A stretch of DNA of 64,000 nucleotides from an uncultured Eubacteriales bacterium. GTDB taxonomy: Bacteria; Bacillota; Clostridia; Oscillospirales; Acutalibacteraceae. Made by a program: the position numbers and the translations under genes. Below, piece after piece: positions 58,382 through 60,590 of the stretch; positions within the stretch are counted from its first letter, which is position 1; every line of letters starts with the position of its first letter. The notes beneath the pieces are model-generated. The model saw only the letters and a program-made list of their open reading frames with translations. It was not told where the DNA came from and did not search any database. The DNA is taken from the NCBI GenBank assembly GCA_948823415.1, contig CAQKRU010000003.1, positions 7,798 to 71,797 of the forward strand. Reading direction: 5' to 3'.

Positions 58382-58765
58382 ATGCCACCAGGAATATCCT
58401 TTGTTTTGGCGTTGCTGTTGCTTGCTGGAGTAGGAGTCTCGGAAAGAAGTTTTAGTAAAGATCATTGCAAACTGGATTGCAACGTAGCGCATGCGGGTGC
58501 CGATTGGTTGCAGGAAGAAAAGGAAATATTGCTGCAAGAGAGAAGCAAGTTGCTAGCAGAAAGAGCCCGAGTAGAAGGGGATCTGCAGAATTTGGAGAGG
58601 CCCGTGACTATAGGAATCATTGGCAACGAGGTTTGGCGCAACAGGTTTAAGCTTTTTTTGAGGAATAGATTAAAGGCTATAAGCCAAAAAATAAATTTTA
58701 TTGATCGTAGTGTAAGAAAGATAGAAGAGGCGCAGGAGACGTTTAAAAAGGTTCAAGAAAAATGA
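58382..58765 (+). CDS. Secreted coiled-coil protein, family E member 0 (CxxxC after the signal peptide)
   Basis: AGGAGG lies 7 nt before the ATG at 58382. Signal peptide ...FVLALLLLAGVGVS, then HCKLDC. Confidence 0.6.
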   Translation: MPPGISFVLALLLLAGVGVSERSFSKDHCKLDCNVAHAGADWLQEEKEILLQERSKLLAERARVEGDLQNLERPVTIGIIGNEVWRNRFKLFLRNRLKAISQKINFIDRSVRKIEEAQETFKKVQEK

Positions 58766-58894
58766 TAGTTTTATGGCATAATTCACTTTTAAAATATTAA
58801 ATATCCCCAAAAACGAAAAACTTTTTTGATTATTGTAGACAAAATCTTTTTGAAGTAGTATAATAAAAAAATAAATTTTTAGGAGGAAATATTT

Positions 58895-59428
58895 ATGTTT
58901 AAAAAAGTGGCGTCACTGTGTTTGTCGACAGCGATGGCTTTTTCAATGGGGGCAGTTGTAAGGGCAGACGCAACAGAGACTTTTACTGAAAGGGAATGTG
59001 TGCGTTCTTGTAAAGAACTACAAAAGAATGAGTTTACCTTTTGGCAGATACTGGAAAGACTTAATAATGAAAAATCAGCATTGGCTGAATTTTTAGACTA
59101 TTTAGAAAGAACGCAAAAAGTACTAAAAAACCAAAAGTTAAGAGAAGAAGCATTGAATAATATGAAATTACAATTTGACGAAGAAGAAAATGACAGAACG
59201 GCTGATTTATTAGAAAACGGTAATGTAGGAAAGTTTTTTGAAGAGAATATTAATATTATGATTGGTCCCTTGAAAGAAAATATAAAATTATTTGATAAGC
59301 AAATAAATAATGCAAAAAATGCAAGTGAAAGCATTAGGAGATTATACTATCAAAAATGCCCAAGTGTTATTTGTAAAAGGATTAATTCAGAAGAAGAGGT
59401 ATATAACCAAACTTGTACAAATTTTTAA
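58895..59428 (+). CDS. Secreted coiled-coil protein, family E member 1
   Basis: AGGAGGaaatatttATG. Signal peptide MFKKVASLCLSTAMAFSMGAVVRA. Has ECVRSC and C-terminal CPSVIC...C. Confidence 0.7.
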   Translation: MFKKVASLCLSTAMAFSMGAVVRADATETFTERECVRSCKELQKNEFTFWQILERLNNEKSALAEFLDYLERTQKVLKNQKLREEALNNMKLQFDEEENDRTADLLENGNVGKFFEENINIMIGPLKENIKLFDKQINNAKNASESIRRLYYQKCPSVICKRINSEEEVYNQTCTNF

Positions 59429-59470
59429 ATAATTTAGATTAATAAAAAAATTTTTTAGGAGGAAATATTT

Positions 59471-59995
59471 ATGTTTAAGAAAGTTGTTTTATTGTGTTTG
59501 TCGGCGGCGGTGGCAGTGTCGATGGGGGTAGTTGCAAGAGCAGAAATGCCTGGACGGGAAGATTTTAGCGCGAAAGACTGCAGAAGTATTTGTGCTGTTA
59601 AAAGTAATTTTAAAAATCTGTTGGACAAAAAAATAGAGCTTATACATTTGCTAATGAAAAATTTTGAGCCTGATATTGCTGCATTATCTGGAGCAAGTGA
59701 AGCGTTAAAAGACCCAAGGATTAGAGAAACAGTATTAAGGAACATATTAAAAGAGAAATCATCAGGAAAATCTGCGCATTCAAAAAAAGATTTAAAGGCA
59801 GCAAGTGGACTAGCAAGCGATGAAAATGTAGGGGAGTTTGCTGTAACACGCTTAATAAAACCTGTGGAACGGAAGCTTACCGCAACTGTACTTGAGCTAC
59901 AAGCAGCGGCAGACAAATTAGAAAAATTAAAAAATAATTTGGATGAATCAGTTAGAGAAAAATGTGTTTGTTTAGACGATATAACAGATCTTTAA
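59471..59995 (+). CDS. Secreted coiled-coil protein, family E member 2
   Basis: Same RBS string. Signal peptide MFKKVVLLCLSAAVAVSMGVVARA. Has DCRSIC and C-terminal CVC. Confidence 0.7.
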   Translation: MFKKVVLLCLSAAVAVSMGVVARAEMPGREDFSAKDCRSICAVKSNFKNLLDKKIELIHLLMKNFEPDIAALSGASEALKDPRIRETVLRNILKEKSSGKSAHSKKDLKAASGLASDENVGEFAVTRLIKPVERKLTATVLELQAAADKLEKLKNNLDESVREKCVCLDDITDL

Positions 59996-60047
59996 TTTTC
60001 CCTGTTGTAATTAAGAAAAGAGCTTAAATTTTTAGGAGAAAGTATTT

Positions 60048-60590
60048 ATGTTTAAGAAAGTTGTTTCATTTTGTTTGTCGGCGGCGGTAGCTATGTCATT
60101 GGGGGTAGTTGCAGGAGCAGAGATGCCTAAATATAACGGAGAGGGTTGCGAAACTTTGTGCCGTGAAACACGACAGGAAGAGTATGATTTGAGGAAAGAG
60201 ATTGAAAACCTTAAAGAAGAGAGAAAAGAAATTGGCGATGTTAACCGATATTATAAGAAAGCTAATGAAACTTTAACGGAGTTTCTTGGTGGGCATGATT
60301 TTGGTTATCCAGACTGGTCTGGCGATAAAATGAAAAAGATGCTCAACTTTTTTGCACAATATCTTAAAGATAAAGATGAGAAAAAAATAAAGAGTATAGA
60401 AGAGATGATAACTTTTTTAGAAAGTAAGATCCCGCTTTTATGGCAACAATATCATGAGATGTGTCCCAATAGTGAATGTGGAGGCCTAAGAAAATTAGGT
60501 AAAGAAGAAATAAAAGTAACGTGTAATGGTTGTTCTCGCTTACCTGAAGTAAATTTTTGGGCCTATGAAAGAGGCATAGCAGCAGCATAA
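60048..60590 (+). CDS. Secreted coiled-coil protein, family E member 3
   Basis: Signal peptide MFKKVVSFCLSAAVAMSLGVVAGA. Has GCETLC and C-terminal CPNSEC...CNGC. Confidence 0.7.
   Translation: MFKKVVSFCLSAAVAMSLGVVAGAEMPKYNGEGCETLCRETRQEEYDLRKEIENLKEERKEIGDVNRYYKKANETLTEFLGGHDFGYPDWSGDKMKKMLNFFAQYLKDKDEKKIKSIEEMITFLESKIPLLWQQYHEMCPNSECGGLRKLGKEEIKVTCNGCSRLPEVNFWAYERGIAAA

Follow-up and report, generated by a model that had tools for sequence, protein, structure and literature searches.

Which proteins are encoded by four short consecutive genes, and whether these belong to a single system with their neighbours, is the question raised by a low-GC islet (26-40% vs 45-58% in the flanks) of an uncultured Eubacteriales genome, which we analysed within a window of 64,000 nucleotides (i.e. 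the whole stretch of DNA studied).

Gene content and layout of the locus

The sequence-only reading had described four same-strand open reading frames (hereafter E1 to E4; Table 1), with XRE and ImmA-like genes upstream and two same-strand TM2 genes downstream. Both parts of this description held, the former through ORF calls and the strong Shine-Dalgarno sites (perfectly spaced, all on the same strand) of E1-E4, and the latter through matches to PF01381, PF06114 and PF05154 (53.8 and 30.7 bits for the two TM2 genes, cut-off 27.9). E1-E4 are real genes, on account of their Shine-Dalgarno spacing, dN/dS values of 0.22-0.38 (below 1) and their conservation across three GTDB species and numerous contigs from the mouse gut. 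The reading frame of the XRE gene is open from 57462, and TM2 gene 1 (likely start TTG 60637, giving 116 aa) follows E4 after a 28-nt gap. Judged from consensus matches only, E2, E3, E4 and TM2 gene 1 look like one putative operon that is served by a separate promoter and closed by a terminator behind TM2 gene 1. E1 could be read through from the M78 gene, and TM2 gene 2 has promoter-like and terminator-like sites of its own. None of the RNA runs contained this locus. The promoter-like site of E2 is kept before the single cassette of a sister species.

The XRE protein further matches RstR-like (3e-21) and capH (7e-13) models and the M78 protein the capP model (4.6e-08, profile positions 24-112 of 242), so that an XRE repressor stands next to an M78 peptidase with an HExxH motif, as in ImmR/ImmA (CapH/CapP) modules. 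The palindromes ACACGAAACGTGT (57468-57480) and ACACGTTAAGTGT (57248-57260) are confined to the divergent intergenic region between the XRE and sigma-like genes, in a count not above chance, and no XRE operator-like site shared with the E promoters was found before E1 or E2.

Table 1. Coordinates of the annotated features, numbered along the window.
Feature	Position	Strand	Details
XRE-family repressor	57531..57908	+	125 aa from ATG 57531; PF01381 7e-18
Short M78/ImmA-like metallopeptidase	57992..58297	+	101 aa, HELAH motif; PF06114 1.5e-10
E1	58382..58765	+	127 aa; CKLDC only; ORF and translation
Promoter-like site TAGACA-17-TATAAT before E2	58836..58864	+	consensus match
5' module copy 1 (E2)	58873..58975	+	direct-repeat family D1, 78% identical to reference copy
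E2	58895..59428	+	177 aa, MFKK-type; CVRSC ... CPSVIC ... C; ORF and translation
5' module copy 2 (E3)	59449..59551	+	breakpoint of one-cassette indel vs MAG
1,259-bp block identical to MAG MGBC113434	59452..60710	+	E3, E4, start of TM2 gene 1
E3	59471..59995	+	174 aa, MFKK-type; CRSIC ... CVC; ORF and translation
5' module copy 3 (E4)	60026..60128	+	88% identical to copy 2
E4	60048..60590	+	180 aa, MFKK-type; CETLC ... CPNSEC ... CNGC; ORF and translation
TM2-domain membrane protein 1	60619..60987	+	PF05154 2.3e-14
Terminator-like 20-bp stem, then T run, directly 3' of TM2 gene 1	60996..61043	+	
TM2-domain protein 2	61236..61835	+	199 aa, signal peptide; PF05154 3.7e-07

A candidate family of exported proteins

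The four genes had been taken for tandem paralogues, a view that stands for E2-E4, which are mutually significant in BLASTP (pairwise 1e-12 to 1e-13; E2 vs E3 2.5e-12, E2 vs E4 1.1e-13) at an identity of only about 20-25%, but not for E1, whose E values against them were at least 0.035 (not significant). The MFKKVV-type signal peptide that had been ascribed to all four is likewise confined, as MFKKV..CLS.A.A, to E2-E4 (E1 begins MPPGISFVLALLLLAGVGVS), where it has the classical n-h-c organisation ending in A-x-A (MFKKVASLCLSTAMAFSMGAVVRA in E2, with D as the following residue). At the nucleotide level, the ribosome-site string thought to be common to genes 1-3 (AGGAGGAAATATTTATGTTTAA) is present in genes 2 and 3, recurs with two mismatches in gene 4 and is missing from gene 1, and the closely similar pair is E3/E4 (88% over the 103-nt repeat) rather than members 2 and 3, which reach 78% in place of the supposed 90% or so over about 90 nt.

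The N-terminus of E1 is a different hydrophobic stretch (signal peptide or signal anchor). This gene was found in every version of the locus seen (hereafter locus A), has a dN/dS of 0.22 and is a conserved core gene of locus A, the core being made up of E1 and TM2. With signal peptides removed, hhalign compared the E1-type and MFKK-type mature profiles at a probability of 15%, over only 35 columns around [ST]F[ST]xxxCxxxC, which does not make E1 a clear paralogue of E2-E4; it is probably a distant fourth member of their family.

The cysteines that had drawn attention to these proteins were all recovered: a CxxxC lies near the N-terminus of all four (HCKLDC, ECVRSC, DCRSIC and GCETLC, 5-15 residues past the hydrophobic N-terminus), and C-terminal cysteines are present in E2 (C155-PSVI-C160 and C174), E3 (C165-V-C167) and E4 (C139-PNSE-C144 and C159-NG-C162), with none in E1. 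Across 27 MFKK-type sequences the CxxxC is found in 24, a C-terminal Cys pair in 22 and the exact C-P-x3-C in 15; the C-terminal spacing is variable (CVC, C-x4-C, C-x5-C), and part of the Cys motif is missing in E1, E3 (CVC), P0016 and two L009 genes. The family signature runs from a Sec signal peptide through CxxxC and some 95-130 helical residues to CPxxxC, and mature E2-E4 are very hydrophilic (GRAVY -0.4 to -0.9) and of about 17-18 kDa. Relatives have variable tails, with EGF-like Cys repeats (P0019, P0020) or hydrophobic anchors (P0014, P0022).

Searches of large protein collections retrieved 16 clusters at E <= 1e-3 among 1.84 billion (1.84e9) representatives and 21 matches in a collection of 5.8e9 proteins (none named and none with a Pfam domain), and the family was found only in mouse-gut 'uncultured Eubacteriales' MAGs (three GTDB species) and metagenomes. 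In line with the earlier statement that no known family could be recognised, scans of the four E proteins and 20 family members against Pfam, NCBIfam, PHROGs and PADLOC returned only sub-threshold coiled-coil noise, and the best hit of a PDB sequence profile search had an E of 0.15. No family relatives were found in IMG/VR viral contigs or JGI metagenomes, and tblastn against PLSDB (72,556 plasmids) gave no match. Taken together, these observations suggest that E2-E4 are three members of a small, lineage-restricted and previously undescribed family of Sec-exported proteins, to which we grant, jointly with the whole explanation developed below, about even chances.

Two further readings of the cysteines were rejected. 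A lipoprotein reading of the signal-peptide Cys fails for want of a lipobox, L-[ASTVI]-[GAS]-C closing a signal peptide of at least 15 residues (Cys9 is only 8 residues from the start, with L or F at -1), and members at a second locus (locus B) have no Cys at position 9; a sactipeptide/RiPP reading of the N-terminal motif fails on the approximately 150 mature residues, the Sec leader and the lack of a radical-SAM/maturase gene in the locus.

Predicted hairpin fold and chemistry of the proposed clamp

For E4 (helices 32-82 and 92-138, pLDDT 86-91) and E3 (helices 34-98 and 117-162, pLDDT up to 96, pTM 0.59), AlphaFold2 predicts an antiparallel coiled-coil two-helix hairpin of about 70 Å, from shallow alignments (8 and 19 sequences) and with a mean pLDDT of only 67-73. 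In both models helix 1 opens with the CxxxC, and the C-terminal Cys follow just past helix 2, which brings both to the open end; in E4 the Cys groups are 49-53 and 52-57 residues from the turn (GYPDWSG), and the heptad a/d positions are 0.64-0.71 hydrophobic vs 0.14-0.33 elsewhere. The prediction agrees, for these two proteins, with the helical hairpin flanked by cysteines that had been proposed beforehand, and the cysteines, whose loss from orthologues had been set in advance as a refuting condition, are kept in orthologues and distant members. Foldseek with both models matched only long hairpins (HP0062, iSH2, PspA/Vipp1, LapA3/4), and against PDB and BFVD nothing reached E <= 0.001, the hits being generic hairpins. 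We propose that the signal peptide would be cleaved after A-x-A, as its sequence suggests, that the hydrophilic mature protein would fold into the long hairpin modelled for the two paralogues, with the tip and the C-terminal tail as its variable parts, and that the CxxxC near the N-terminus and the CPxxxC near the C-terminus would together clamp the open end, through either a pair of disulfides or a single metal site.

In a strict anaerobe it is doubtful that disulfides form, and a metal clamp would be an equal candidate because the host is an anaerobic Firmicute, a group in which exported proteins show no even-cysteine bias (2/20 species; PMC2823432). That the four Cys bind a metal (Cys4 or Cys3His; Zn, Fe or Cu), which would make these proteins extracytoplasmic metal-binding or metal-sensing hairpins, is a tentative alternative that draws, besides the host, on the convergence of two Cys pairs from both chain ends on one site (AlphaFold2 models of E4 and E3), on a relative with CxxxH in place of CxxxC (L009_9266) and on the H-C-x3-C-x3-H of E1. 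It has to be weighed against the EGF-like Cys-rich repeats of P0019 and P0020, modules that typically contain disulfides and whose presence suggests oxidative folding, and against the variable C-terminal spacing, which would be easier to accommodate with flexible disulfide partners than in a fixed tetrahedral site. The metal alternative concerns the chemistry of the clamp only and is compatible with every role considered below.

Cassette variation at a conserved 5' module

Each of the E2-E4 genes has at its 5' end a module of about 100 nt (upstream A/T tract, AGGAGG, ATG and signal-peptide codons); the modules are 76-92% identical, and the gene bodies behind them have no nucleotide similarity. 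The 1,259-bp block shows zero differences from MAG MGBC113434, whereas the flanking genes are about 5% diverged (dS 0.14-0.19), and its left edge is the copy-2 module (E3). The breakpoints of an extra cassette in the MAG fall within the 5' module, and metagenome contigs break or join at 5' modules, including copy 3 (E4). The number of MFKK-type copies at locus A is 0 (L018-20), 1 (L013/14), 3 (window) or 4 (L001), with 1-4 at the second locus, and mosaic genes occur as well (in P0003 an E4-type signal peptide precedes an E2 body, and in P0002 a different signal peptide precedes an E4 body). The cassette indel, these mosaics and the block identical between strains lead us to infer recombination at the 5' module: each cassette would be a variable body behind the conserved ribosome-binding site and signal-peptide codons, and homologous recombination at this module would add, remove and swap cassettes between strains. 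The identical block could also be a recent exchange devoid of selective meaning, and since overall dN/dS is below 1 (0.38 for E2 against its MAG orthologue) positive selection is not demonstrated.

Genomic neighbours and the second locus

Locus B consists of ispD, one to four E genes and a sugar transferase, with no XRE, ImmA or TM2 gene, and a sister species has XRE-M78-E1-TM2 without any MFKK-type gene. TM2 gene 1 is of the YozV type, a widespread family that is found without E genes (including in Bacteroidota), and at the position of TM2 gene 2 relatives carry a different TM2 gene; neither runs X4 and X10 nor L001 contain the segment 61057-61924 of the window. The sequence-only reading had put forward, as a check, the conservation of the order XRE-ImmA-E(n)-TM2. 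This order is not a family trait, because locus B lacks regulator and TM2 genes and because TM2 homologues are found widely where E genes are absent. A TM2 protein as dedicated partner of the E proteins was rejected too, as its homologues stand alone or as TM2-TM2-DUF2752 in unrelated genomes.

Possible role and alternatives

By their evolutionary pattern and by analogy, which are the sole basis of the role proposed here, the E proteins would most likely form a variable extracellular repertoire for binding or antagonism (directed at competitors, phages or host) under frequency-dependent selection. The explanation as a whole (a new exported hairpin family, a Cys clamp, cassette recombination and a variable extracellular repertoire) appears to us as probable as its negation. 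We regard such a repertoire as likelier than a dedicated toxin/immunity pairing with the TM2 proteins, and we consider it unlikely that the E proteins are bacteriocin-like interbacterial toxins (of the large, non-lytic, Sec-dependent kind to which dysgalacticin and streptococcin A-M57 belong), with TM2 as immunity protein and XRE/M78 as damage-inducible switch. Dysgalacticin, which has 220 aa, a Sec leader of 28 aa and a membrane immunity gene beside it (PMC8308785), offers a comparable leader and neighbouring membrane gene, and the Sec leader, mature size and conserved Cys of the E proteins, the membrane protein co-transcribed at the end of the putative operon, and the second TM2 gene, which is also allelic between strains, would all suit a toxin. 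Moreover, the variable cassettes, conserved leader module and recent inter-strain exchange resemble bacteriocin-immunity regions. Points against such toxins are the locus B members, which have no adjacent membrane/immunity gene, the TM2 gene numbers, which do not follow E gene numbers, the occurrence of the TM2 gene 1 family alone in unrelated contexts, the very hydrophilic proteins, in which no membrane-active segment was seen, and the lack of plasmid matches.

Quite unlikely, in our view, are cell-envelope adaptors or scaffolds, i.e. surface-held hairpins bound to E1, TM2 proteins or wall polymers and serving the envelope instead of antagonism. The conserved E1-TM2 core of locus A, the C-terminal hydrophobic anchors of P0014 and P0022 and the position of locus B beside a polysaccharide-priming sugar transferase speak for them, as does the fact that the core of a two-helix hairpin is, as a rule, buried only against a partner (WXG100, PcsB-type coiled coils); on the other hand, copy numbers of 0-4 with presence/absence between close strains imply dispensable genes, the low paralogue identity argues against one conserved partner surface, and neither a wall-binding domain nor a sortase signal was observed in the E proteins. 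Scaffolds of this kind can be likened to PcsB/CwlO coiled coils docking on FtsX. We find it very unlikely that the locus serves stress- or phage-induced exclusion or defence, in which a CapH/CapP-like XRE/M78 pair would derepress the operon when DNA is damaged or phage infects, and hairpins and TM2 proteins would block phage adsorption or injection. In favour are the capH and capP matches, pairs of this type being activators of immune operons in response to DNA damage (bioRxiv 10.1101/2022.04.27.489752; PMC13228613), and the matches of the TM2 proteins to phage PHROGs of unknown function; the combination of a low-GC islet with fast-evolving surface genes would fit an arms-race locus. The M78 protein, however, has only 101 aa and no CapP-type C-terminal sensor region, the operator-like palindromes are restricted to the XRE/sigma-like region, E2 has a promoter-like site of its own, no E protein has a convincing PADLOC match, locus B has no regulator and the family is absent from IMG/VR.

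If this explanation were confirmed, an undescribed family would join the few known exported, cysteine-locked coiled-coil hairpins of Firmicutes, and an uncultured mouse-gut commensal would provide a clean natural example of secreted proteins diversified as cassettes through a module of ribosome-binding site and signal-peptide codons. Repertoires of secreted proteins that vary in this way between strains may have a part in strain-level competition, in phage interactions or in recognition by host IgA in the gut; the practical reach is limited here, the family being confined to a few uncultured species.

Comparison with known systems

Locus A is akin to the ImmR/ImmA, CapH/CapP and DdrO/IrrE switches in having adjacent XRE and HExxH M78 genes upstream of accessory genes, and differs from them by its minimal M78 peptidase (85-101 aa), by the E promoters, at which no shared operator was found, and by the absence of the pair from locus B. 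Class III Sec-dependent bacteriocins (dysgalacticin, streptococcin A-M57) resemble the E proteins in their Sec leader, mature size (about 17-21 kDa) and, as far as locus A is concerned, small adjacent membrane protein (PMC8308785). The two groups nonetheless show no detectable sequence similarity (no match by plasmid tblastn, no named relative in either protein collection), and the known bacteriocins of the dysgalacticin type are plasmid-borne single genes, whereas the E genes form chromosomal arrays with a membrane gene at locus A only.

The WXG100/YwqH-like/Lap hairpins (T7SS substrates and LXG-toxin partners) are, like the E proteins, antiparallel two-helix hairpins encoded by tandem paralogue sets in Firmicutes, and they supplied the top Foldseek match of E4 (HP0062) and some of those of E3 (LapA3/A4). 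The YwqH-like model PF16888 spans nearly the whole E4 hairpin at a below-threshold score (E 0.0022, 18.7 bits, cut-off 33.7) and gave any match in only 2 of 20 family members, while W-S-G at the turn is limited to E4 and P0002, WxG not being conserved in the family. In contrast to WXG100 proteins, which have no Sec signal peptide and depend on T7SS export, E2-E4 have a predicted cleavable Sec signal peptide, helices about twice as long and conserved open-end Cys pairs, and the flanking regions showed no T7SS genes. It would be a long shot to regard the family as a Sec-exported offshoot of these hairpins, in which paralogues expressed together would assemble in pairs, as four-helix bundles locked by cysteines, and act as cassette-diversified extracellular effectors (a new competition or phage-decoy system of gut Clostridia), with variants shuffled by the 5' recombination module and damage-responsive XRE/M78 wiring at locus A.

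Disulfide-stapled helical hairpins are also known from plants (alpha-hairpinins) and from mitochondria (the twin-CX3C small Tim proteins), where they comprise 30-90 residues and each helix bears a CX3C. As predicted for the E proteins, CX3C on one helix faces a second Cys pair on the antiparallel helix and so locks a helix-loop-helix; these proteins are, however, eukaryotic and share no homology with the E family, whose hairpin has about 100-130 residues between the motifs and whose second motif is C-P-x3-C, C-x5-C or CVC beyond the helix end, instead of a CX3C on each helix. Arrays with conserved leaders and variable mature parts are known from the pneumococcal blp bacteriocin-immunity region and from the lpl and ssl clusters of S. 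aureus. Although the proteins, leader types and sizes differ (blp with a double-glycine leader and ABC exporter, lpl with lipobox lipoproteins, E with a plain Sec/SPase I signal peptide), these arrays, like the E genes, join a nucleotide-conserved leader to a divergent mature region and, as proposed for the E genes, undergo gain, loss and mosaicism of cassettes from strain to strain through recombination within the conserved segment.

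Predicted exported cysteine-motif proteins and their kinship

Translation of the four tandem genes (E1-E4) showed that a C-x3-C motif closely follows a hydrophobic N-terminus in every one (4/4), and that the C-terminal cysteines of E2, E3 and E4 are exactly those listed in the sequence-only reading. The signal peptide which that reading had ascribed to all four (MFKKV..CLS.A.A..S.G.V..A) is common to E2-E4, where a positive n-region (MFKK) and a hydrophobic core lead to an A-x-A site before E or D; it does not extend to E1, whose N-terminus (MPPGISFVLALLLLAGVGVS) could act as signal peptide or as signal anchor. 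For E1 we take ATG 58382 as the start and not ATG 58376, since ribosome-binding-site spacing is proper at the former and too close at the latter. A lipoprotein reading of the signal-peptide cysteine (residue 9) was rejected, as the surrounding sequence is not a lipobox. Two assignments had to be corrected: the string AGGAGGAAATATTTATGTTTAA, previously placed in members 1-3, occurs in genes 2-4 (two mismatches in E4) and is absent from gene 1, and the identity of about 90% applies to E3/E4, which share a 103-nt direct repeat (88%), and not to E2/E3 (78%).

Genes and putative control sites (window coordinates)
Feature	Position	Placement	Product	Remarks
TG-extended promoter-like site	58301-58329	before E1		putative
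E1	58382-58765	same strand as E2-E4	127 aa	ORF with strong AGGAGG site
Promoter-like TAGACA-17-TATAAT	58836-58864	before E2		putative
E2	58895-59428	same strand as E1, E3, E4	177 aa	ORF with strong AGGAGG site
E3	59471-59995	same strand as E1, E2, E4	174 aa	ORF with strong AGGAGG site
E4	60048-60590	same strand as E1-E3	180 aa	ORF with strong AGGAGG site
Terminator (20-bp stem)	60996-61043	after TM2 gene 1		putative

Of the four supposed paralogs, E2-E4 (the MFKK-type members) are recovered as such by BLASTP (1e-12 to 1e-13, pairwise; E2/E3 and E2/E4 23-25% identical across almost full length), whereas E1 is not (E >= 0.035 against E2-E4). With signal peptides removed, the E1-type and MFKK-type profiles align over 35 columns only, centred on [ST]F[ST]xxxCxxxC (hhalign probability 15%). 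On account of both values we treat E1 as a probable distant relative of E2-E4 and not as a demonstrated paralogue.

As had been proposed, curated libraries recognise none of the four proteins (the best match, E4 to YwqH-like, scores 18.7 bits and falls short of the 33.7-bit cut-off). Five relatives came from a word-index search, 16 matches from HMMER with an 8-sequence profile run over all 1.84 billion cluster representatives, and 21 from a 20-sequence profile in a 5.8-billion collection; none bears a name or Pfam domain. All genome matches are mouse-gut ‘uncultured Eubacteriales’ MAGs (MGBC113434, MGBC113193 and MGBC113401), every sequencing run with the locus is a mouse-gut or gut metagenome, and the family was absent from IMG/VR, PLSDB and JGI metagenomes. 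The genes are real, and E2-E4 belong to a new, narrow and small family, the signature of which comprises, in order, a Sec signal peptide, 5-15 residues, C-x3-C (24/27 MFKK-type sequences), a helical stretch and a C-terminal cysteine motif (e.g. (W/Y/F)xx(Y/F)xxxC-P-x3-C). A cysteine pair is present in this last motif in 22 of the 27 (exact CPxxxC in 15/27, C-x5-C or CVC in other pairs), and the two motifs are separated by 93-132 mostly helical residues in full-length members and by 62-65 in the two shortest (P0017 and L002_1121). Some relatives (P0019, P0020 (L012 801-1808), P0014 and P0022) carry extra C-terminal modules beyond the hairpin, among them CGENEFYNANTNTCEC..G....G.C repeats (with an EGF-like cysteine pattern), a coiled coil or a hydrophobic tail; the last could be a membrane anchor.

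Predicted fold and cysteine chemistry

The helical hairpin of the sequence-only reading holds as a prediction: AlphaFold2 models place helices at residues 32-82 and 92-138 of E4 (8-sequence alignment, pLDDT 86-91, ends disordered) and at 34-98 and 117-162 of E3 (19 sequences, pLDDT up to 96, pTM 0.59). A heptad pattern runs through both long helices, with hydrophobic residues at 64-71% of a/d positions vs 14-34% elsewhere; the mature proteins (16.6-18.4 kDa) are strongly hydrophilic, their GRAVY being -0.4 to -0.9. As 49-53 and 52-57 residues separate the E4 cysteine groups from the turn centre, these groups would meet at the open end of an antiparallel hairpin. The predicted E4 turn (residues 83-91, window 60300-60320) reads GHDFGYPDWSG. 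Foldseek found no match at E <= 0.001, and returned only generic long hairpins (HP0062, p85 iSH2, PspA/Vipp1, chemoreceptor, LapA3/A4; all E > 0.001).

The cysteines may form disulfides, as originally supposed, or may bind metal. Metal binding would be in keeping with the absence of an even-cysteine bias from the exported proteins of anaerobic Firmicutes (PMC2823432), but the EGF-like cysteine-rich C-terminal repeats of P0019 and P0020 argue against it, as they suggest that oxidative folding does occur.

Probable recombination at the conserved 5′ module

From 25 nt before the start codon to 75 nt into the coding sequence (the 5′ module, a ribosome-binding site plus signal-peptide codons), E2-E4 are 76-92% identical; beyond it no nucleotide similarity among them was detectable. 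In MGBC113434 (about 95% identical to the window) E2 and E3 are separated by an extra member, P0004; the alignment has two breakpoints there, which overlap within the 5′ module (59420-59551). Mosaics also occur: in P0003 the body is E2-type and the signal peptide E4-type, and in P0002 an E4-type body follows a different signal peptide; metagenome contigs break or join at 5′ modules in four runs, and two (X4 and X10) have the MAG-like arrangement. A 1,259-bp block (59452-60710), which on its left begins where the E3 5′ module does and which takes in E3, E4 and the first part of TM2 gene 1, is 100% identical to MGBC113434, while the flanking genes differ by about 5% (dS 0.14-0.19), a contrast which points to recent recombination between lineages. 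The E genes are under net purifying selection yet fast-evolving (dN/dS 0.38 in E2 and 0.22 in E1 vs 0.03-0.10 in gltX, glnS, XRE, the sigma-like gene and the ATPase).

Genomic setting and regulation

At locus A, the locus of the window, glnS is followed by two genes on the opposite strand, one sigma-70-region-4-only and one of 72 aa, then by XRE, a short M78 peptidase, E1, the MFKK-type cassettes, a TM2 gene, in some cases a second TM2 gene, an acidic secreted protein and a P-type ATPase. The cassettes number 0 in L018-L020, 1 in L013/L014, 3 in the window, 4 in L001 and at least 3 in L002 (L013 and L018 stem from a sister species, glnS identity 91%); given this variation, E1 and TM2 are the conserved core and the cassettes an insert with its own promoter-like site, conserved between the window and L013. 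Between glnS and the P-type ATPase the whole islet (56700-62850) has a GC content of 26-40% against 45-58% in its flanks, a difference suggestive of foreign or rapidly evolving DNA. All versions of locus A are closed by the acidic secreted or anchored protein (62023-62835, about 260-270 aa), in which we recognised no family; it has a D/E-rich linker and a CAPGDCPENP motif, and evolves very fast (48% identical to its sister-species counterpart at the amino-acid level vs 91-94% for GltX and GlnS).

Short gaps (28-52 nt) separate E2/E3, E3/E4 and E4/TM2, and the second TM2 gene has putative promoter- and terminator-like sites of its own. A candidate binding site for a regulator is a perfect 9-bp inverted repeat (TGGACATTT-N6-AAATGTCCA, 61060-61083), situated between the TM2 gene 1 terminator and the promoter-like sequence of the second TM2 gene. 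This second gene (199 aa) is allelic: window 61057-61924 is missing from X4, X10, L001 and L002, where the TM2 protein is a different one of 178 aa whose ectodomain is rich in cysteine (GTVCDSEKCKKSALC); L002 has a further one of 236 aa. The XRE and M78 proteins (the latter minimal, 101 aa) match capH and capP models, and operons under such pairs are derepressed after DNA damage. On the - strand (56716-57313) the gene for the 101-aa sigma-70-region-4-only protein overlaps the 72-aa ORF and is divergent from XRE, a layout that recalls Tn916 orf7/orf8 against orf9. Operator-like palindromes occur only in their shared control region (57230-57535), as two related copies, ACACGAAACGTGT (57468-57480) and ACACGTTAAGTGT (57248-57260), with a match count not above chance.

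More distant members reside at locus B (ispD, one to four MFKK-type genes, Bac_transf sugar transferase), likewise a low-GC islet (30-31% vs 44-47% around) and also present in the MAG closest to the window; it has no XRE, M78 or TM2 gene. YozV-type homologues of TM2 gene 1 are widespread (40-49% identity even in Bacteroidales) and stand alone or as TM2-TM2-DUF2752, without E genes. The proposed XRE-ImmA-E(n)-TM2 module (ImmA being the M78 gene) thus fails to generalise, and the gene order is a local arrangement. At locus B of MGBC113434, downstream of the hairpin gene and sugar transferase, a 584-aa protein (L017 9593-11347) oddly combines an AAA ATPase domain with an N-terminus resembling a signal peptide and a long acidic tail rich in Ser, Glu and Asp.

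Possible role and comparison with known systems

Taken together, we consider with fair confidence that E2-E4 are Sec-exported, cysteine-clamped coiled-coil hairpins that diversify by recombination at a conserved 5′ module. The genes are accessory, differ between strains, evolve fast and were recently exchanged, and their products vary at tip and tail; from this pattern only, we favour a role as variable extracellular binding or antagonism factors. Below it we rank a bacteriocin with TM2 immunity, an envelope adaptor, and phage exclusion controlled by XRE/M78, against each of which locus B and the occurrence of TM2 homologues elsewhere provide some evidence.

The pneumococcal blp region and other conserved-leader cassette arrays are analogues of this system and not relatives. 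The same applies to WXG100/YwqH/Lap hairpins, which are shorter and without a signal peptide; WXG100 proteins have W-x-G at the turn, as does E4 at its predicted turn, but the paralogues of E4 do not conserve it. Eukaryotic CX3C-stapled hairpins and dysgalacticin-type Sec-dependent bacteriocins (PMC8308785) are, similarly, analogues of the E proteins and not their relatives.
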